DNA of 62,425 bases, counting the filler, from Stramenopiles sp. TOSAG23-6 (taxonomy: Eukaryota), in the NCBI GenBank assembly GCA_900128565.1. It is 36 parts of 36 records of this genome, joined end to end, with 100 filler letters (N's around TTAATTAATTAA, not from the genome) between each part and the next. Parts side by side here need not be neighbours in the genome. Positions count along the whole stretch, not along the records: positions 59,082 to 60,703 come from LT638781.1; 35 more parts are not named here. The stretch is one strand, 5' to 3'. The notes under the pieces were generated by a model. It made no database searches and was not told the DNA's origin. It worked only from the letters and a program-made list of their open reading frames with translations. A program made the translations under genes and the position numbers. Below are positions 277-62,365 of the stretch, in pieces; positions within the stretch are counted from its first letter, which is position 1, and each line of letters starts with the position of its first letter.

Positions 277-418
277 ATGTATTGTGAAAAATATTTTTGT
301 TTTGTAAAAAAATATTAGGTACAAAATTATGTATGAAAAACAATTTGAAATTCATGAAATTTTCATAGTAAAAAAAAATTTAGGTAAAAAATTCATGATT
401 AGGGTTAGGGTTAAATAC

Positions 419-815
419 ATGACTGTCAGCTTCTTTAATGCTAACCAGTTGATGACACAAAAGACACACTAACGAAGAACAAGTAACACATTGTCCAGGT
501 AAAGGAACTGGATTTGAACGACCTCCAGCCCATTGAATCTCTGGAGGTTGAACTAGCGCAGTATTGCACCCTTTTTTTGGACATAAAAATATTTTCTTGG
601 TTTTTGATGTTCCAAAACTATTAATTTGCTGCATCATAAATCGTGATTGGAAATCAGAAGTAATAATATCACGTTGGGTAAAGAAACTAAGCGTTTGTCC
701 AGTTATTTTGCCACAAATTGGAGGTTTGCCATCTGCTGTGGCCTCTTGGCAACCTGGGCAAAATGCGGGGAATTTCCCCTGTTGCATTGTTTCATTTAAA
801 TTTTCTGCAAGACAT
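419..815 (-). CDS. Exon of an RBR/IBR-type E3 ubiquitin ligase
   Basis: FPAFCPGC...CPKKGC...QCVTCSSLVCLLCHQ Cys/His pattern (RING1-IBR); ends at a family donor at 418. Confidence 0.6.
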
Positions 816-1750: not shown

Positions 1751-2783
1751 ATACTTCCACTTGTTTTAGTATATATATCTTTACAGATCATTACAAATTC
1801 CTCAAAATTTAAAGATTCGCATTTATTAACTTGTTTTTGTAAACCCGCTGTTACATCTGCGTGAGTAATATTCATACTTATATGTTGCAACACTTCGTAA
1901 ATCTCAGATATGTGCAGCATATTATTCGAATCTTTTGTATGTAATGTAAATAAATCTTGCAATTCTTTTACAGTAACATAAAAATGCATTTGTTTTGCTT
2001 CATTCAAACTGCGATTGTATAAGGTAATTATTTGATGTTTTTCAAGGACTTCTCTTTCAATCATTAAAACAAGTTGGCGCAATCGTCTGACGCATATTTC
2101 TGGAACTCGAATGTTCGCTATTTTAAATATTTCTAATATTTTGTCTTTAGGTAGAACGTTAATTTTTTCACCATTTACATTTGTGTGGGAGACTCCAAAT
2201 GTTTGGCATAGTGTAACAAATGCGATTGATATTGCATTTAAATCGTTTTGAGGCACCAAATTTTCTAGATTTTTCACAAAAGCTTCATTATTCTCGGGAT
2301 CAAAGTCCCGTGTAATTATTTCGTCAGTTCCCTTTGCTGAGTAAATATTTCTCTTATTCTGTTTTTCATCCTTTTCCATTATTTTAAAAGACTTTTTTGA
2401 TCCATTGAATTCTTGACTAGATAAATTGGCCATTGCCTTTATAACACCATCTCGAGTTCCATGGAATGCGCCCTGGAATCTATTATTTGTTTCATCAAAT
2501 GTAAACTCTTCTGGAAACGCAACGTTCGGCGAAGTGTCAACAAGTTCCCACATTTTGTTGGATCTTTCTTTAATTTTTAATTCCATAAATTTCATCGNNN
2601 NNNNNNNNNNNNNNNNNNNNNNNNNNNNNNNNNNNNNNNNCGTTTGTTTACCTTATGTCGACAATTAGGTTTCACAAGTTCGTCGACCACTTTTACTATA
2701 ATTGAGTTTTGACTTGGACGAAACCACTTATTTTTATTGATATCAGGTGATTCTCTTTCAATCTTTCGCCTTTGCTTCATCAT
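1751..2783 (-). CDS. EF-hand-containing hypothetical protein, partial (N gap)
   Basis: ELQDLFTLHTKDSNNMLHISEI and CESLNFEEFVMI resemble an EF-hand pair. Confidence 0.5.
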
Positions 2784-3799: not shown

Positions 3800-4786
3800 T
3801 TATTGGTGTAATTGCTCCATGGAAAATTTAGAAAATGCGGCTGTCAACTGCCTGGGTCCTCGCGCAGTTACTGAAACAGTACCATTAGCTGATACTTTGC
3901 TATGCACAAGAAGAAAAAGCCGACTGCCAGCAATGAAACACGAGCAAATAGCCTCAGATGTCTTAGCTATTACCTGTATTGGGAACACGCCAAGTTTTTT
4001 CTTTGCGGTTTCCATATATACATTTGGGTCAGCACTAGATACACTTAATCTAAACTTTTGTTCTGACATCATTTTATTCTTTGAAGCCATCATCCATTTT
4101 GATCCAAAATCTTTGGTGTTCATTCTTAGCGGACGAAGCCAGTCTCTCAAACTCATGGGTACTTCAACTGAGAGTGGTGAAGATAAATTTCTATCTACTG
4201 TCACTGACAAAGACTGTCGGATTACCCCTGATGGTTGTGCTCCCTGCATTTTAATGAGCAACACCGCTGTATTACCGGCTGATATTTCACCTGCAGCAGA
4301 TGCGCCATCTGTCATTAAACATACATCATCGGATGCGAAATTTATGTTCAAGTCTTGAGGAACATTTGCTACAACTCGACATTGATGATTACTAGAAGAT
4401 CCATTGGTGATAAACAACACAGCAACTAAACCGTCTGGTCGGTATACCTTATGATAACTTACGTGGAATATTCCATCACTATTAAGCAAAACATTGCCTT
4501 CTGATTCACTAGGTACTCTTACAAAATCACCAAGTTGTTGTAAAAGAACGACAGGTACTTTGAGGTGGGCTACATCTGGGCTATTATTGGTGTCCGCGAA
4601 ATCACCTAGGCCAAACACATCAGAAGCATCATGAACAGAACTATTGCTTGGAGTATCATCGAGTGATAAACCAATTAAATCTCCACCTAGAAGATCGCCA
4701 TCATCACCCCCACCGCTGCTTTTATCCGTATTTATCTCACTATTTAATGATTTTCTAGCTTCGCGTTGCTTCTTCCGACGAGCCAT
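3800..4786 (-). CDS. AP4E1: AP-4 complex epsilon subunit, C-terminal hinge and appendage (partial)
   Basis: DLLGGDLIGLSLD linker, then WLRPLRMNTKDFGSKW...LLVHSKV...VTARG, matching the adaptin epsilon appendage platform. Confidence 0.65.
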   Translation of the reverse strand: MARRKKQREARKSLNSEINTDKSSGGGDDGDLLGGDLIGLSLDDTPSNSSVHDASDVFGLGDFADTNNSPDVAHLKVPVVLLQQLGDFVRVPSESEGNVLLNSDGIFHVSYHKVYRPDGLVAVLFITNGSSSNHQCRVVANVPQDLNINFASDDVCLMTDGASAAGEISAGNTAVLLIKMQGAQPSGVIRQSLSVTVDRNLSSPLSVEVPMSLRDWLRPLRMNTKDFGSKWMMASKNKMMSEQKFRLSVSSADPNVYMETAKKKLGVFPIQVIAKTSEAICSCFIAGSRLFLLVHSKVSANGTVSVTARGPRQLTAAFSKFSMEQLHQ

Positions 4787-36944: not shown

Positions 36945-37765
36945 TTTTTAAATACATATTTTGGTTTGAAAAAATTGTTAAATATTTATATATGTAATAA
37001 AAGTGGGGTTGACTGTAATATTGATCTGAGATTAATTTTTTTTTTTTTTTAAAGTACACGGGTGCATCATTATTTAAAAAAAAATAAAAGATATAATCCA
37101 TCGTTAAACTTATTTTAAAATTTATATATATAAATACATGTAGANCACATTTTTGCATCATTCTGACAGAGTAGAATTTCTTAACAAAAAGTATTTGGAA
37201 TTTTTTTTTTTTTTTTTTCAAAAATTGATATATATATATATATGTTTTTTGTAGAATTATTTTCTAACATGTATACAGAAACATTGTCAAAACATTATTA
37301 TTGATGGTTCAGTTGTATGCTTTNTACGCTTTATTTTTTTATGTAATTGTTTTTCATAGATAATTTTGTACATAATGAGAAAAAAAAATAATATTTTCAT
37401 AGATAAATTTGTACCGAATGAGAAAAAATATTTTTTTTCATAGATAATTTCGTACCTAACAAAGAAAAAAAATCTAAGAAGATTTTGTTACAATTATAAT
37501 TGATACAGATAAAGAAGTAATCAATAAAGCAGATAAGAAGGCCCTTGTGCTTAGTTTTAGAGTCCCCATGTGAGCCATGCGAGGGAAATAGTGTAGTGTG
37601 ATACCCTATTTTATTGATCTTTTTTGTTCATTTAATTAGGGTTAGGGTCTGGAAGGCATGTAAATATATTACTCGAAGTGTCCATTTTTATTCTAAAAAA
37701 CAGAAAAGAAACAATATTATTATGAAATTGAAATGATAATAATCAAATCTCTTTGCACAAGCTAG

Positions 37766-43432: not shown

Positions 43433-43585
43433 NNNNNNNNNNNNNNNNNNNNNNNNNNNNNNNNNNNNNNNNNNNNTTAATTAATTAANNNNNNNNNNNN
43501 NNNNNNNNNNNNNNNNNNNNNNNNNNNNNNNNTGTACCTAACGATTTTTTTTAGATTTTTTTTGAAATATTTTTCCAAAATACAT

Positions 43586-45138
43586 GCTTCCAAAACCACT
43601 TGTGATTAGATCAACTTCAAAGTTACAGCTTCAAGCGAAGGATGAGAATTCTTTGTTTTCTGTAACAATTACTGATATTTTTAATTCTCCAGTTGAAAAA
43701 TGCCGAGTTACTTTGTATGTTTTCATCATGAATTTTTTTTTTCATACAAAATTTTGTACCTAACAAAATTTTTTTTTTTTTTTTAAATTTATATTTTTTT
43801 ACAATACTGGAGTGCATTTCGCGTGAAGGAATATTTACTCGAAGAAGTTCCCATGTCTTTGAAAGGTAATTCAAAATCTGTGTACGAATACAATTTCTTG
43901 TCTGCTAATCCAGATATTGGGTTATTCGATCTTGATATAAAAATCACACCATTAGATGAAGACAGTCCTATTATTGTGCCACGTGTCATTATGTACGTTT
44001 TCATCCTTCATTGTACATTTTAAAATGTATTTTTAAAATGTATTTTTAAAATTTTTTTTTTAAATGTATTTTTAAAATGTATTTTTAAAATGTATTTTTA
44101 AAATGTATTTTCAATTTCGATTTTGTTGTACTGTGAAAATTTTTCTTCCTCACGAGTTTTCGAATTTGGTGTAATTCTTTATGATGCATGATTACAACTT
44201 CAGTATCGGTAGAAGAAGTTACTATTTGGGTGGATCGAACCGAGACTTCAAGATATGTACGTTTTCATTATTTTTTTTGCCTTTTTTTTTTTTTCGTACG
44301 ACATTTTGTACCTAAGAACAAAAATCTTGTACTATTTTTTCACAATACATCCTTCTGGTAAAGATAAAAAGATTACAGCATTGTCTCCAAATGCAGTCGA
44401 TTCAGTGTTGAATGTAGACATAAATGAAGTTTTGCATGTCATGTTTGAACCTCTTTCTGCAACAAGTGGTGATACAATAAATCCACATCAAGCATTTCTT
44501 AAAATTCAACACAAGGCATCGAATGTTGATACAATTTTTGTGGCTGTGGCGAATGAAGTTGATGGGAAATACACTATTTCTTGCCCTATTAATGATATTG
44601 ACGCTTGGAAGTCGACTTCAGGTCTTCATTCTTTGACACTCTACATCGGAGATCCGAAATTGAATCAATTTTTCGAATGGCAATTTGCTAAAGTTAACTT
44701 GACATTACAAGAAAAAGTTGTACCAGAATTGTGTACGTTTTCAAAATTGAATTTCGAATTTATTTATTTTTTCGTAAAAACAATTTTGTGTCTAACAAAT
44801 GTCGAATGTAAAATATACTTTCACAAAATATCCTTATATACGAGATCTCTTCTTCATGTACGTTTTCATTATTCATTTCAAATTTATTTATTTTTTTTCA
44901 TACGAAATTTTCTAAGTAAGAAATTGAATTGTTTTTTTGAGTTTTTATTCGATACGTTTTTCATTATTCATTTTTTATTTATATTTGTTTTTGTATTTTT
45001 TATTCTTATAATTTTATTTTTTGTATTTATTAAAAGTTGTATCAAAATTACAAAACTAACAAATTTTATTATAGAAACATATTTTGTACAAAATATCATA
45101 CAGACACAACCCTTATCGCCCTTCCTGAAATTAGTCAT
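43586..45138 (+). CDS. RPN2: Oligosaccharyltransferase subunit ribophorin II fragment, six exons separated by family introns
   Basis: PHQAFLKIQH, SGLHSLTLYIGD, LYTRSLLH/TDTTLIALPEISH. Introns 43715-43809, 43993-44189, 44257-44350, 44733-44831, 44858-45096. Confidence 0.85.
43715..43809 (+). other. Family intron, GT-TG termini
   Basis: ACT TT|GTATG...CAATACTG|G AGT GCA is the in-register, frame-restoring junction. Confidence 0.65.
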
Positions 45139-48100
45139 GTACGTTTTATTTTTTTTTCAATTNNNNNNNNNNNNNNNNNNNNNNNNNNNNNNNNNNNNNN
45201 NNNNNNTTAATTAATTAANNNNNNNNNNNNNNNNNNNNNNNNNNNNNNNNNNNNNNNNNNNNTGTACCTAACGATTTTTTTTAGATTTTTTTTGAAATAT
45301 TTTTCCAAAATACATGCTTCCAAAACCACTTGTGATTAGATCAACTTCAAAGTTACAGCTTCAAGCGAAGGATGAGAATTCTTTGTTTTCTGTAACAATT
45401 ACTGATATTTTTAATTCTCCAGTTGAAAAATGCCGAGTTACTTTGTATGTTTTCATCATGAATTTTTTTTTTCATACAAAATTTTGTACCTAACAAAATT
45501 TTTTTTTTTTTTTTAAATTTATATTTTTTTACAATACTGGAGTGCATTTCGCGTGAAGGAATATTTACTCGAAGAAGTTCCCATGTCTTTGAAAGGTAAT
45601 TCAAAATCTGTGTACGAATACAATTTCTTGTCTGCTAATCCAGATATTGGGTTATTCGATCTTGATATAAAAATCACACCATTAGATGAAGACAGTCCTA
45701 TTATTGTGCCACGTGTCATTATGTACGTTTTCATCCTTCATTGTACATTTTAAAATGTATTTTTAAAATGTATTTTTAAAATTTTTTTTTTAAATGTATT
45801 TTTAAAATGTATTTTTAAAATGTATTTTTAAAATGTATTTTCAATTTCGATTTTGTTGTACTGTGAAAATTTTTCTTCCTCACGAGTTTTCGAATTTGGT
45901 GTAATTCTTTATGATGCATGATTACAACTTCAGTATCGGTAGAAGAAGTTACTATTTGGGTGGATCGAACCGAGACTTCAAGATATGTACGTTTTCATTA
46001 TTTTTTTTGCCTTTTTTTTTTTTTCGTACGACATTTTGTACCTAAGAACAAAAATCTTGTACTATTTTTTCACAATACATCCTTCTGGTAAAGATAAAAA
46101 GATTACAGCATTGTCTCCAAATGCAGTCGATTCAGTGTTGAATGTAGACATAAATGAAGTTTTGCATGTCATGTTTGAACCTCTTTCTGCAACAAGTGGT
46201 GATACAATAAATCCACATCAAGCATTTCTTAAAATTCAACACAAGGCATCGAATGTTGATACAATTTTTGTGGCTGTGGCGAATGAAGTTGATGGGAAAT
46301 ACACTATTTCTTGCCCTATTAATGATATTGACGCTTGGAAGTCGACTTCAGGTCTTCATTCTTTGACACTCTACATCGGAGATCCGAAATTGAATCAATT
46401 TTTCGAATGGCAATTTGCTAAAGTTAACTTGACATTACAAGAAAAAGTTGTACCAGAATTGTGTACGTTTTCAAAATTGAATTTCGAATTTATTTATTTT
46501 TTCGTAAAAACAATTTTGTGTCTAACAAATGTCGAATGTAAAATATACTTTCACAAAATATCCTTATATACGAGATCTCTTCTTCATGTACGTTTTCATT
46601 ATTCATTTCAAATTTATTTATTTTTTTTCATACGAAATTTTCTAAGTAAGAAATTGAATTGTTTTTTTGAGTTTTTATTCGATACGTTTTTCATTATTCA
46701 TTTTTTATTTATATTTGTTTTTGTATTTTTTATTCTTATAATTTTATTTTTTGTATTTATTAAAAGTTGTATCAAAATTACAAAACTAACAAATTTTATT
46801 ATAGAAACATATTTTGTACAAAATATCATACAGACACAACCCTTATCGCCCTTCCTGAAATTAGTCATGTACGTTTTATTTTTTTTTCAATTNNNNNNNN
46901 NNNNNNNNNNNNNNNNNNNNNNNNNNNNNNNNNNNNTTAATTAATTAANNNNNNNNNNNNNNNNNNNNNNNNNNNNNNNNNNNNNNNNNNNNTGTACCTA
47001 ACGATTTTTTTTAGATTTTTTTTGAAATATTTTTCCAAAATACATGCTTCCAAAACCACTTGTGATTAGATCAACTTCAAAGTTACAGCTTCAAGCGAAG
47101 GATGAGAATTCTTTGTTTTCTGTAACAATTACTGATATTTTTAATTCTCCAGTTGAAAAATGCCGAGTTACTTTGTATGTTTTCATCATGAATTTTTTTT
47201 TTCATACAAAATTTTGTACCTAACAAAATTTTTTTTTTTTTTTTAAATTTATATTTTTTTACAATACTGGAGTGCATTTCGCGTGAAGGAATATTTACTC
47301 GAAGAAGTTCCCATGTCTTTGAAAGGTAATTCAAAATCTGTGTACGAATACAATTTCTTGTCTGCTAATCCAGATATTGGGTTATTCGATCTTGATATAA
47401 AAATCACACCATTAGATGAAGACAGTCCTATTATTGTGCCACGTGTCATTATGTACGTTTTCATCCTTCATTGTACATTTTAAAATGTATTTTTAAAATG
47501 TATTTTTAAAATTTTTTTTTTAAATGTATTTTTAAAATGTATTTTTAAAATGTATTTTTAAAATGTATTTTCAATTTCGATTTTGTTGTACTGTGAAAAT
47601 TTTTCTTCCTCACGAGTTTTCGAATTTGGTGTAATTCTTTATGATGCATGATTACAACTTCAGTATCGGTAGAAGAAGTTACTATTTGGGTGGATCGAAC
47701 CGAGACTTCAAGATATGTACGTTTTCATTATTTTTTTTGCCTTTTTTTTTTTTTCGTACGACATTTTGTACCTAAGAACAAAAATCTTGTACTATTTTTT
47801 CACAATACATCCTTCTGGTAAAGATAAAAAGATTACAGCATTGTCTCCAAATGCAGTCGATTCAGTGTTGAATGTAGACATAAATGAAGTTTTGCATGTC
47901 ATGTTTGAACCTCTTTCTGCAACAAGTGGTGATACAATAAATCCACATCAAGCATTTCTTAAAATTCAACACAAGGCATCGAATGTTGATACAATTTTTG
48001 TGGCTGTGGCGAATGAAGTTGATGGGAAATACACTATTTCTTGCCCTATTAATGATATTGACGCTTGGAAGTCGACTTCAGGTCTTCATTCTTTGACACT

Positions 48101-48773
48101 CTACATCGGAGATCCGAAATTGAATCAATTTTTCGAATGGCAATTTGCTAAAGTTAACTTGACATTACAAGAAAAAGTTGTACCAGAATTGTGTACGTTT
48201 TCAAAATTGAATTTCGAATTTATTTATTTTTTCGTAAAAACAATTTTGTGTCTAACAAATGTCGAATGTAAAATATACTTTCACAAAATATCCTTATATA
48301 CGAGATCTCTTCTTCATGTACGTTTTCATTATTCATTTCAAATTTATTTATTTTTTTTCATACGAAATTTTCTAAGTAAGAAATTGAATTGTTTTTTTGA
48401 GTTTTTATTCGATACGTTTTTCATTATTCATTTTTTATTTATATTTGTTTTTGTATTTTTTATTCTTATAATTTTATTTTTTGTATTTATTAAAAGTTGT
48501 ATCAAAATTACAAAACTAACAAATTTTATTATAGAAACATATTTTGTACAAAATATCATACAGACACAACCCTTATCGCCCTTCCTGAAATTAGTCATGT
48601 ACGTTTTATTTTTTTTTCAATTNNNNNNNNNNNNNNNNNNNNNNNNNNNNNNNNNNNNNNNNNNNNTTAATTAATTAANNNNNNNNNNNNNNNNNNNNNN
48701 NNNNNNNNNNNNNNNNNNNNNNACAAAATTTCGTACGAAAAAAAATTCGAATTTGAAAAAAAATAAAACATAC

Positions 48774-50452: not shown

Positions 50453-51789
50453 CGAATTGGGATCGTTTTTTAAGTGCTGCCAATAAAGTTGCGATAGTAA
50501 AATAGATGGTTCTTCTAACAAATATCTGCCTTTTTCAACAGACCAGCGTTTTGTTAGTTCTATATTTAAATTGAGATAATACTTTGCTTCTTCTACTTTA
50601 CCTGCATACACTGCAGATGCACCAAGACCTTGACGTGACATGTAGTTATCCGTCGGATACACAGCTATATTGGAACTCATCAATGAATTTTCGCTCGCCC
50701 AATCAGGATTTCTCAAATATGTTTGTGTNNNNNNNNNNNNNNNNNNNNNNNNNNNNNNNNNNNNNNNNNNNNNNNNNNNNNNNNNNNNNNNNNNNNNNNN
50801 NNNNNNNNNNNNNNNNNNNNNCAACAATTAGAATTACTGCCCCAATTGAGGGTAAAAATAAAGTACGTTCTGCAATAACAAATGCCACACTTGTAAGTAC
50901 ATGAGAAGATGGGAGATATGCTATTACCCCAATGGCAAATGCAAGCAGTCTGACATGCCGACGAGTGTATGCCTCTGAAAGAGTTTTTTTAATGGCAAAA
51001 AAAGATATAATCCAAACCGCCAGTGTTGCGAGATTTCGAATATCGTACATCTTTGTGACTAAGGGTAACGCAATATGCTCATGTGCTAACGGCATCAAGG
51101 GTGGATAGAATAACATAGCCACTGCGCGTGTTTGAACATGAGAAATAGCGACAAATTTTTCGAAAACTGTATTTAAATCACTCATTGGATTATGTAACCA
51201 GAGGNNNNNNNNNNNNNNNNNNNNNNNNNNNNNNNNNGCGAAAAATTAACAAACTGATTGCAAAAGTAGTTACACAAGAGCACCTAACTTTTGCTATCCG
51301 TATTGCCTCAATGCAATCAATGAAAAACTCTCTTATGAGTACAAGTATGCTTCGTGAGGAATTAAGGATAGATTCATTATCTGTTTGTGGTGTAGCATAA
51401 GCTAACTCAAAAGAAAGTAGAATAGCTGGTACAACAAGTGCGGTTTCTTTACTGACTACTCCAAGAATAATTAAGATAAAACAAGCAAGCACTGGCAGTA
51501 GTTGGTCAGTTGTTTTCATCGAAACAAGCACAAATTATTCAAATATCAATATTTGGGTTTCTTTTGACAACATTTGCAACACAAACATATTTGAGAAAAA
51601 TGCGGATAAAGTTTCTGCTCGAGATGTAACGTTAGAAACCACTTCAGAGTGAACAGGATGAACTGCAAACAGTATTGACGCTGCTCCAGCCCGACTCATT
51701 TCTTGCCTACCAAAAATAGCTGAAAAAAAGTATGCAGCCAGAAAAACAGTTGCAGCATGAATTAGTATATTAGTATAATGAAATTTCAT
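50453..51789 (-). CDS. TMTC-family protein O-mannosyltransferase fragment (frameshifts and gaps)
   Basis: FHYTNILIH; LFAVHPVHSEVVSNVTSRAETL; SKETA; FVIAERTLFLPSIG; TYLRNPDWASE. Confidence 0.88.
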
Positions 51790-52080
51790 TATACTAATAT
51801 ACTAATTCATGCTGCAACTGTTTTTCTGGCTGCATACTTTTTTTCAGCTATTTTTGGTAGGCAAGAAATGAGTCGGGCTGGAGCAGCGTCAATACTGTTT
51901 GCAGTTCATCCTGTTCACTCTGAAGTGGTTTCTAACGTTACATCTCGAGCAGAAACTTTATCCGCATTTTTCTCAAATATGTTTGTGTTGCAAATGTTGT
52001 CAAAAGAAACCCAAATATTGATATTTGAATAATTTGTGCTTGTTTCGATGAAAACAACTGACCAACTACTGCCAGTGCTT
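51487..52080. repeat. Perfect fold-back inversion centred near 51783
   Basis: The same 84-aa ORF appears on both strands; centre TATAATGAAATTTCATTATA. Confidence 0.9.
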
Positions 52081-59132: not shown

Positions 59133-60618
59133 GTGATCCTGCTTTTCAAAGGTATTATACTGATGATAATGCACGTGTATGTCTTAATTTTTTTTCAAAT
59201 TGTTTTTTTTTTCGTACGAAAGTTCGTACCTAACAAATTTTAGTTTTTTTTTTTTGAAATATTTTTCCAAAATACGTTCACTTCTAGCTGGATTAGCAAC
59301 TCGGTCACTTTTGCGTAACTCGGCATGGGACTCTATCATTGTAAGTGCTGTACTAGCTAATTTGCGTATGGCTGGTCCAAGTGGCTTTGCAGATGGATCA
59401 CTAATGTTTAGTGATATTGCAAAAAGTGGTTGGGAGGCACGATCTGCAAAGGATCACAAGAATATTAAGAGTGTATATTCACCACACTACCAATCTTACA
59501 TTTGGGCTGTTTTCCTTCGAATGTATAAAATAACTGGATACAAACCTCTTTTAGAAAAGGCCAAAAATGCCATTTCAAATATGATGGACAAGTACCCTGA
59601 ATGGTGGCAAAGTACGAGCAATGGTATCACAATGCAACGGGCACGAATGATTTTGCCACTTGCATGGTTAGTCATGGTAGAAGACACACCGGAGCATCGG
59701 CAGTGGCTTGATGTAATTACTCAGGGTTTGCTTGAAAGACAAGATATAAAAACGGGTGCGATTCGTGAGGAAATAAGTGGTAAAGGTTGGGGGTCCAGTG
59801 CACGTGTACCAAACAACACAAATTACGGTACATTTGAAGCACCGCTTAACCAGTCAAATGAAGATCCAGTAAGCGATCTTTTGTATGTTTTATTTTTTTT
59901 CAAATTCGAATTTATTTATTTTTTTATAAAAATTTTGTACCTAACGAATTTTTTTTTGAAATATTTTTACAAAATACATGTACACAACAAACTTTGCTTT
60001 TCTTGGTCTTCATGAAGCAGTACATGTATGTTTTAAAAATTGATTTTTTTGGTCTAAACATTTTTTTATAGGATTTTTTTTTTACAAAGAAAAAAATGTA
60101 TATTTTTGTACCACTAATGCTGTTGGTCCAACAACTGAAATGGGAAAACGATATATGGCAGCTGAGGATCGTCTGGCAAATTTGCTAGTTCGTGCACAGG
60201 TTACCAGTGGTGCTGTTTGGTCCAATGAGGATACAGACACGACAGATTGGGAACACACTGAGCTAAATGGGGCATGTATGTTTTCATCATGAATTTATTA
60301 TTTTTTTTTCGTACGAAATTTCGTACCTAACAAAACAAATTACAAAAAAAAATATTTTTTCACAATAAATGGTTTCGTGCCTTTGATTTTGAAAAGTGGG
60401 AATATTGGGCTTCTGATAGTGATATTGGTTGGGGGGCATGTACATTTTCATAATGGATTGAAAATTAATTTATTTTTGTACCAAATTTTGTACTTCTGAA
60501 AAAAAATCGAATTTGACATATTTTTTCATAAAACATGGTCTATTGAGACAGGTTGGACACAAGCATGGATTAGCTCTGTATTTGCCATGCGTCAACTAAA
60601 TCAGAGTTTGTGGGACAT
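59133..60618 (+). CDS. Six-hairpin glycosidase-like protein; family introns 59177-59277, 59883-59979, 60026-60118, 60276-60370 and 60440-60536
   Basis: Spliced product: YTDDNARSLLA...ERQD...NYGTFEAPL...DPVSDLLYTTNFAFLGLHEA...LNGAWFRAFDFEKWEYWASDSDIGWGAWSIETGWTQAWI. Confidence 0.75.
59177..59277 (+). other. Family intron, GT-GT termini with GT repeated at both junctions
   Basis: GCA CGT|GTATGT...CAAAATACGT|TCA CTT. Confidence 0.75.
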
Positions 60619-60861
60619 GTATGTTTTATTTTTTTTTTTTTGTATGAATTTTTTTTCATACGAAATTTTGTACCTAACAAATTTTTTTAGATTTTTTTTG
60701 AAANNNNNNNNNNNNNNNNNNNNNNNNNNNNNNNNNNNNNNNNNNNNTTAATTAATTAANNNNNNNNNNNNNNNNNNNNNNNNNNNNNNNNNNNNNNNNN
60801 NNNACTTTGTAAAAATATTTCAATTTTTTTCTTGTTAGTTTATTGGGTACAAAATTTCATA

Positions 60862-60897
<36 letters not shown>

Positions 60898-60989
60898 TTT
60901 TTTAGGGACAAAATTTCATAGTAATTTTTTTTTTTTTTTTTTTTTTGTTAGTTTATTAGGTACAAAATTCTCTATTAAAAAAAACATAC

Positions 60990-62365
60990 ATATTCTTTCC
61001 GTCTACCTATAAATTTTTTCATATTATTCCATGACCAAGAATATTTTAGTGCATTTTTATAGTTTTGATGAAAATCATTATTTTTATTAAAATCACCAGT
61101 AGTAGATTGAGATACATTTGGAATTTGTGTCTTTGACGATTTCATGAGTTGTTTTTGAGCTATACTGTATTGTACAAAAATATTTTTTTTTTTTGAGATT
61201 TTTAATTTTTTTTCGTTAGGTACAAAATTTCCTACAAAACAAAAAATTAAAATTTTGAAATATATATTTTTTTTTTAAATGTTTTTTGTTAGGTACAAAA
61301 TTTACTACAAAAAAAAAATTGAAATTTTGAAAACATATATACATCGACAAGCATGAATCCACCAAAGCTTTGGTAGTTGAGATATTGATATATTTGGCCG
61401 ATGCTCCCGACACGATTCTACAACACGAAATATGCGTATTGCATTTTCAAGTGCTATGACGTCATCGTATTGTCTCTGATGAAAGTGTACATTCATATTT
61501 TCAAAATTAGCTTTAATTTGTAATTTAGGAAAATTTAAATTCATTTTATCATTTAATGCTATATGAGCTTCAACAGAGATAGGAAGTAAAATATGATGAG
61601 AAAATTTTGATTTTTTTGATTTTTTTGTTTTTTTTGTTTTTTTTGATATTTTTGATATTTTTGTTTTTTTTGTTGTTTTGGTTGGACTAGGGTTAGGGTT
61701 TGTAGATGATGTTTCTTCATAAATCATTTTCAAGAGTTTTTCGTGTCGTGTCTCTCTACAATTTTCTTTTGATATCAATTTCACCATCGTCGATTTCCAA
61801 TACAGTGAAACATCAGATAGACGTCCAAACTTGAAAACTCTCGTTTCATGTATTACAAAACATATTTGAAATATTTAAAAATTGTTAGGTACAAAATTTC
61901 GTACGAAAAAAAAAATTTAAATTAAAAAAAAAATTTTTGAAATGTTTTTTTTGAAATGTTTTTTTTGAAATGTTTTTTTTGAAATGTTTTTTTTGAAAAT
62001 GTTTTTTTTGAAATTTTTGAAAACGTATATTTTTATTCGACTCTATTGATTCATCATGAAATATAGTCTCATCATCTGCATTTACTGTTTTTATACTACA
62101 ATATTTGAGAGTTAAACCAACAGCAAAATTATTTTTATTTGAATATTCATCTTCATATCGAATAAATTTTGGGAAAATATTTCAAATTTTTTTTTTACAT
62201 TTTTGTTACAATCGATTTTTTTTTGTTTTACTATACAAATTTCGTATTTAAAAAAAAAAANTTAAAACCTTTGGTACAAAATTTCGTATTTAAAAAAATT
62301 ATACATTCCAAATTGAAATAAAGTATGANAACGTACATGTGAAGATTACAAATGTCTATTTGAAT
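60990..62365 (-). CDS. VPS13: VPS13 N-terminal (chorein) region; family introns 62162-62336, 61848-62028 and 61165-61338
   Basis: IQIDICNLHI/RYED; FAVGLTL; SLYW; QRQYDD; LWWIHA; WSWNNM...RRKEY. Confidence 0.9.

Follow-up and report, generated by a model that had tools for sequence, protein, structure and literature searches.

The window analysed here, a stretch of 62,425 nucleotides in which short contigs are strung together via N linkers, contains a gene for an uncharacterised protein between positions 59133 and 60618. Its homologs are approximately 700-800 aa long and are found in protists and in many Bacteroidota; the longest exon has no Pfam match. An upstream exon at 60119-60275, identified by homology and by RNA pieces covering 60117-60258, and a downstream exon at 60371-60439, identified by RNA joints and homology, are separated by a 95-nt intron at 60276-60370 that begins with GT and ends with AT. 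The donor reads CAT/GTATGTTT (60273-60283), and the 3' end (60361-60370) follows the consensus TTTTYC(A/C)AATAY-NN. Sibling introns are found in the same gene: a GT-AT intron at 60440-60536, which keeps TTTTGTAC and has no CTAAC; one of the form TT/GT..AT/ at 59883-59979; one with GT-GT ends (GT/GT..GT/) at 59177-59277, for which no RNA joint was seen and the removal of which restores an R invariant in 120/120 homologs; and a degenerate copy at 60026-60118, lacking the usual internal block, the removal of which restores the frame. At 60117, one X2 contig has a loose end of 11 letters that gives a weak match to the upstream exon.

Among the RNA matches listed (32 pieces, there being a further 1747; most other joints link repeat copies and were left out), the intron at 60276-60370 is removed in at least one contig and that at 60440-60536 in at least two, from two studies and at low depth. 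In contig X4 record 29, of depth 2.4, 60273 is followed directly by 60369 and 60436 by 60534; the latter joint recurs in X2 record 13 (depth 2). The 60273/60369 joint fits a cut 2 nt to the right equally well; because the flanks of these introns repeat, the RNA joints agree with the GT-AT cut and with a shifted cut alike.

Protein homology is more informative as to the register. Removing 60276-60370 restores the residues G-A-W-F, the joint column being W in 92, F in 14, Y in 10 and a gap in four of 120 homologs. At 59883-59979 the GT-AT cut produces an L, present in 119/120 homologs, whereas a 2-nt shift to the left produces an M, present in 0/120. Similarly, at L019:3380-3475 (GG/GC..AT/) the GT-type cut gives G-Q, found in 4/4 homologs aligning there (one more stops short of the site, and the intron is left in place in the public model P0241), and the 2-nt shift again gives M. 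Of two further sites, one in Pex16 falls in a variable column whose six commonest residues include neither N nor Y, and at the other, in a MOSC gene, the alignments end before the joint. A codon-phase comparison gave no signal on the register, exon position -2 differing from intron position -2 in 10/71, 14/57 and 9/53 cases. Judged by its homologs, the GT-AT register is fixed at two introns.

A repeated intron family

The perfect 16-nt palindrome GTACGAAATTTCGTAC remarked on in the initial annotation does occupy 60311-60326, with CTAAC directly 3' of it at 60327-60331. The second, self-complementary block, AAATATTT, likewise lies where it was described, upstream of the 3' end at 60350-60357, but the copy at 60276-60370 ends as CACAATAAAT and not as CCAAAATAC. 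The 21-nt motif, allowing three mismatches or fewer, occurs 41 times in the window where chance would give 0.02; the 41 include reverse-strand self-matches (e.g. 57202 and 60306) and copies from a contig present three times. That contig accounts for 43533-48622 (motif matches at 43744, 45474 and 47204); C13 and C14 also duplicate one another, and the window at approximately 51700-51870, L009-L011 (G000:C2) and L020/L021 (C27) have long perfect inverted repeats and mirror-image contigs, which are likely to be amplification chimeras. In the 21.1-Mb G000 assembly the motif has 3014 exact matches (1563 + 1451), and in a control none. Two G000 proteins, Prp8 and a transporter, show near or full identity to P0006 and P0241, whose source labels are MAST-3; hence the organism is a MAST-3-like stramenopile.

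All well-formed copies examined lie within A/T-rich inserts of about 90-130 nt that start with GTAYGTTTT and finish with TTTTYC(A/C)AATAY plus two bases. A catalogue of introns defined by both ends, and not by the block, was drawn from 724 kb of window and G000 DNA and comprises 268 unique copies, a set still biased toward the family as the initial training of the end profiles used copies anchored on the block. In an earlier set, a single clear open frame crossed the joint in 181/204 introns. The last dinucleotide is AT in 209 of the 268, TT in 23, GT in 15, AG in 12, AC in five, AA in three and TG in one; the profile, which resembles the family, demanded a GT or GC donor, hence other intron classes are undercounted in these donor and acceptor statistics. 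The AG by which U2-type introns are recognised is therefore present in 12 cases, against 209 for AT. In-frame AG alternatives exist for some introns, ten of them upstream of the end and 38/256 within 12 nt downstream.

As in introners, similar introns occupy many unrelated gene positions, and a 2-nt target duplication is apparent: 34 of the 59 non-AT ends equal the end of the exon, where about five would be expected from the marginals. When the exon and intron ends differ, the intron side is mostly AT (26 GT/AT and 11 TT/AT), an excess that suggests selection for AT. Although GTA..TAC with flanking AT is self-complementary, such that a terminal inverted repeat of at least 6 nt might be drawn, position +4 does not covary. 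Nor is the 5'-3' end pairing that had been envisaged supported beyond about 5 bp, since a C at +4 faces an A in 100 copies and a G in four.

Two subfamilies are discernible, one combining +10 A with GTATG donors (114/142) and the other +10 C with GTACG donors (62/83). Several family introns contain telomere-like CCCTAA units (window ~380-420, minus strand; L020 ~2050-2700, minus strand), and those at 60820-61010, 37330-37460 and 61190-61330 have tandemly duplicated internal blocks with two or three copies of the branch box. At L022:3-3346 (minus strand), removing family introns places a cellular RNA-dependent RNA polymerase domain in frame after RecQ-like helicase domains. Alongside the family there are rare canonical GTAAG..AG introns, at L014:8182-8284 and L044 ~4290-4400 (minus strand); the former, with a TACTAAC and the frame kept, is the one clear case from a strict scan.

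The palindrome and the branch box

The block had been held to be conserved while the spacers vary. Its repetition is evident; however, a perfect palindrome is not the norm, being found in 13/268 introns, with a T variant in 70/268 and all six pairs possible in 112/268, and neither is conservation uniform. Across the 268 copies, C/G positions are kept at 51-57% in spacer markers, slightly better, at 60-71%, in the 5' arm of the palindrome (60311-60316), and at 88-95% in GTACCTAAC (60323-60331), which spans GTAC, at the 3' end of the palindrome, and CTAAC. In the most diverged third of the 237 copies scored, mismatch is 0.363 for CGTACG in the 5' arm, compared with 0.104 for GTAC and 0.124 for CTAAC; in young copies the arm's mismatch is 0.13, against 0.36 in that third. 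The suggestion that the block outlasts the spacers is consequently true of GTACCTAAC, which is kept like a splice signal, and not of the 5' arm, which decays at near the spacer rate. An account of the arm through CpG decay was rejected: losses of C and G fit it in part, but the observed/expected ratio of CpG is 0.92 in the DNA examined. The AAATATTT block lies within the final 30 nt of 190/268 introns.

It is unlikely that the palindrome functions as an RNA hairpin, presenting the branch adenosine or helping to replace recognition of AG. The 6-bp stem with a 4-nt loop that can form at 60311-60326 has a predicted energy of -6.5 kcal/mol (z -2.6 for the 31-nt piece), and 138/268 copies reach -3 kcal/mol or better; yet the fold of the whole intron is not significant (z -1.5), 86/268 copies lie above -1 kcal/mol, including 48 of the 210 with an intact GTACCTAAC, and the -21/-6 pair is broken on its 5' side in 100/268. 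A random sample of 70 of the 226 copies that have CTAAC exactly, comprising 46 distinct rows, gave a covariation score of 0.127, the same as in shuffled alignments (254/500 as high), and a slide of -2 scored higher. Changes on both sides of a pair number ten, all of them within degenerate, poorly aligned introns. A small residual coupling can nevertheless be detected: variation at -17/-10 is often compatible with pairing (GT 140, AT 41, GC 38), permuting the arms costs about 0.2 kcal/mol relative to the real combinations (-2.38 to -2.41 vs -2.58 kcal/mol; 0-1/500 permutations, also within age bins), and a C at -10 goes together with an undamaged TACG arm (p 0.03). Both the coupling excess and this association could arise from shared descent, and weak selection for pairing is possible. 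Given that covariation is absent, that the arm decays almost like the spacers and that GTACCTAAC is kept, the most plausible reading is of an extended branch box, to which the 3' half of the palindrome belongs, together with an inherited arm; a role for the palindrome itself as a signal is not supported.

The arm might instead reflect events at the DNA level, the block being a copying site for a transposase or another factor that decays after insertion, such that only its overlap with the branch box persists. The 5' arm is indeed best kept in young copies and holds a second DNA palindrome, TTCGTACGAA, and the family has 2-nt flank duplications, but coupling inside TTCGTACGAA tracks subfamily and indel variants and not compensation; we regard this as improbable for the block as a whole, whilst it is compatible with an extended branch box as an origin for the 5' arm. 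The 3' end of a Helitron consists of a hairpin followed by CTRR, at which the element terminates without a target duplication. This identity was rejected here, as the element runs 30-50 nt past CTAAC and has 2-nt duplications.

With regard to the extended branch box, CTAAC is found in 224 of the 268 introns and is followed by a purine (A in 62%, G in 35%); in the intron at 60276-60370 the predicted branch adenosine is 60330. The box is complementary to U2, by a helix that is weak in the energy model, and allowing U2 to pair through a bulged C gives no modelled gain (-1.2 vs -1.1). It does not appear to be strictly required, since the introns at 60440-60536 and 60026-60118, which are spliced or probably spliced, are without CTAAC.

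U1 and the choice of intron ends

The genes for U5, U2, U1 and U4 lie head to tail within 640 nt at G000:C1146:9-645 (L031), with a duplicate on C6122; the gaps of 2-23 nt suggest one co-transcribed precursor. A U6 gene is found on C3740. As the contigs of U1 and U6 carry family introns, both genes can be assigned to this organism. The U1 gene (G000:C1146:349-508, duplicated on C6122), the only one found, matches RF00003 over positions 1-166 with an E value of 8e-12 and 54.1 bits, a score below the gathering cut-off of 69.5, and the sequences of loops I and II differ from the consensus; four stem-loops are nevertheless recovered by cmscan, together with an Sm site (AAUUUUUUG) and a position between U2 and U4. 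Its 5' end is AAACGUACAUG, where the Rfam consensus is AUACUUACCUG. The substitutions, at U1 positions 9, 5 and 2, lie opposite -1, +4 and +7 of the donor, which in the 268 introns are T in 244, T in 155 or C in 108, and T in 261, respectively.

Aligned in the standard register with the GT or GC that the catalogue required, the variant U1 would form a mean of 9.12 Watson-Crick and 1.03 wobble pairs of 11 with the 268 donors (-9.4 kcal/mol), compared with 6.87 and 0.47 for the canonical end (-2.0 kcal/mol); it is better for 261 donors, equal for one and worse for six. The commonest donor base at all 11 positions complements or wobbles with it, and at six shifted registers Watson-Crick pairing is at most 3.71 (181 introns), against 9.12 in register. 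For the donor at 60273-60283, the variant would form ten Watson-Crick pairs and one wobble (-11.0 kcal/mol) and the canonical end eight pairs (-1.9 kcal/mol). The variant would pair Watson-Crick with the GTACG (+10 C) subfamily and by wobble with the GTATG (+10 A) subfamily. The canonical intron at L014:8182-8284 shows the reverse preference (-2.4 kcal/mol with the variant, -11.4 with the canonical end), on account of which the incomplete assembly may lack an additional U1 of standard type. Exact 11-mers of a canonical U1 end number seven, against ten in a control, and none has an RNA family match; in metagenomes the variant 5' pattern occurs at 40 loci, none of which resembles the snRNA cluster beyond the seed, so these provide no independent copy of the gene.

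The initial annotation had proposed a variant snRNA complementary to the block. A variant does exist, but it is U1, and it matches the donor and not the palindrome or the branch site. The expected partner of the branch site is unaltered: two identical copies of U2, canonical in the branch-pairing region, were the only ones at E ≤ 1 among the 47/1185 candidates scored. Loop 1 of U5 and the ACAGAGA box of U6 are also canonical, and no match to U12 was obtained at E ≤ 10 (42/1595 candidates scored, in an incomplete assembly). It is accordingly very improbable that the introns are minor-spliceosome-like AT-AC introns cut 2 nt to the left, with TACCTAAC as a U12-type branch site: such a shift gives AT..AC in 119/268 and fits the RNA joints at AT/AT introns as well as the GT-AT cut does, but it leaves the remaining ends heterogeneous (GT..AC 29, TT..AC 24, AT..AT 36), is disfavoured by both informative homology tests, lacks a detectable U12 and disregards the standard register of U1, in which C8 pairs with G+1. 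By complementarity, the variant U1 suggests instead that the splicing machine and the invading introns have adapted to each other.

The 3' end lies 30-50 nt beyond the branch box, with a bimodal distribution near 33-34 and 42-43 nt. Since an AG is skipped downstream of the box in 44/228 copies, and an earlier YAT is passed in 214/228, the end does not seem to be found by scanning; the conserved terminal block is its likely marker. Among the proteins that might be concerned, Slu7, Prp8 and one U2AF65-like gene were found. In the last (L100:667-2628, G000:C433), both RRMs resemble RRM1, and an F in the motif that follows the RS region replaces the conserved W that binds U2AF35, which is a lead for changed recognition of AG. 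A second candidate for U2AF65, L099, was rejected. U2AF35 is not among 16 CCCH matches (23 candidates), nor is it the RRM match on C1280, in this incomplete assembly; the SF1-HH profile is silent in the genome, and in the control too. Prp8 (L038:2586-8591, G000:C84) has 2001 codons without an intron, a C-terminal frame break coinciding with N bases. It differs at 42 of 1166 near-invariant columns, compared with 3-30 in reference proteins and 51 in P0001; the differences cluster at 749-750, 879-886 and 1370-1373, whilst the segment around 1638 is unchanged.

A model of the introns and its relation to known systems

Taken together, the data probably describe an introner family spliced by the U2-type machinery, having a functional GTACCTAAC, a decaying arm, a donor-matched U1 and an AT 3' end set by the terminal block. 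The palindrome would be an internal part of one mass-amplified, probably transposon-derived family of introns around 100 nt long, removed by the major spliceosome. The donor AT/GTAYGTTT would be read by the U1 changed at three positions, through up to 11 pairs. Within GTACCTAAC, CTAAC and the next purine would pair with the unchanged U2, and the upstream GTAC would be a selected extension, read either by a protein or, across a single bulged C, by U2; as the bulge adds no modelled stability, something other than U2 seems the better candidate. The 5' arm and its hairpin would be inheritances of the founding element, now in decay. The 3' end would be fixed by the terminal block TTTTYC(A/C)AATAY-NN, 30-50 nt past the branch box and without scanning for AG, the last two bases coming from the 2-nt target duplication and being mostly AT. 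The initial interpretation of the blocks as extended splicing signals holds insofar as they lie in the signal region of a non-AG intron and GTACCTAAC is conserved as a unit, but is not supported as regards a selected hairpin, pairing of the intron ends beyond about 5 bp or pairing of the block to a variant U2/U12-like snRNA.

A broader proposal, to which we would give about an even chance, is that introner invasion remodelled the major spliceosome of this MAST-3 lineage: U1 would have been rewritten at three positions so as to pair fully with the donor and the AT target, AG-dependent selection of the 3' end would have given way to the extended GTACCTAAC and the terminal block, perhaps accompanied by a lost or altered U2AF35 function, and GT-AT would now be the working intron rule of the cell. 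By itself the palindrome is of minor importance; beside it stand GT-AT splicing, supported by RNA and by homology, and a U1 gene whose three substitutions suit the donor of the family, and the surrounding system bears on two open questions. The first is whether snRNAs coevolve with intron signals, the U1 change here matching a single repeated family, including the base on the exon side where it inserts. The second is how a U2-type spliceosome chooses a 3' end without AG when U2, loop 1 of U5, the U6 box and Prp8 around 1638 are seemingly unchanged. Since near-identical introns number in the thousands and the sequence of U1 is known, the system is open to minigene tests. As gene models of the lineage read through family introns, as P0241 does, gene counts and functional repertoires will have been underestimated.

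A literature search outside most subscription journals and the supplement of PMC9860276 found no account of GT-AT introns or of a changed U1 in this lineage, and the word 'splice' is absent from the portions of the MAST genome literature consulted. In the sections consulted of a preprint on the coevolved U1 of Mastigamoeba and Entamoeba (bioRxiv 10.1101/2022.06.08.495308), coevolution is named only for Entamoeba, Mastigamoeba and, with reservations, Physarum, and Micromonas, a known introner host, has a standard U1. According to the same sections, the U1 of Mastigamoeba balamuthi has a changed core, ACGUAC, that pairs with a +4 C donor, and that of Entamoeba, ACAAAC, gains one extra pairing base. 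The core found here is the same as in Mastigamoeba, and, because the host is a stramenopile, the change would be convergent. Unlike what those sections describe for either amoeba, two further changes reach the exon -1 U and the intron +7 U, making all 11 positions pairable, and the donors concerned are those of a single repeated family whose 3' ends are not AG.

From the parts of the reports drawn upon (PMC13326754, PMC11282704), most introns of Fritillaria borealis escape GT-AG, carry repeats of transposon origin and are removed by a U2-type spliceosome, all of which are likenesses to the present family; however, they are mostly AG-AC and AG-AT, with unchanged U1 5' ends and a duplicated U2AF, whereas the present family has a GT donor, and in its host the sequence of U1 is itself changed and one U2AF65-like gene was found. 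The introners described in the main text of PMC9860276, including those of Chrysochromulina, similarly place many similar introns in unrelated genes and take the 3' end from a flank duplication; in that account the co-opted end is AG, whilst here it is AT, TT, GT, AC or AA (256/268) and the duplication is 2 nt long. As in the yeast-type TACTAAC, the CTAAC core can pair with a canonical U2, but it has an extra C (TACCTAAC) with a conserved G before it, and no AG marks the 3' end, 30-50 nt further downstream. The family works, then, like introners spliced by the major spliceosome, and departs from U2-type introns in lacking their AG.
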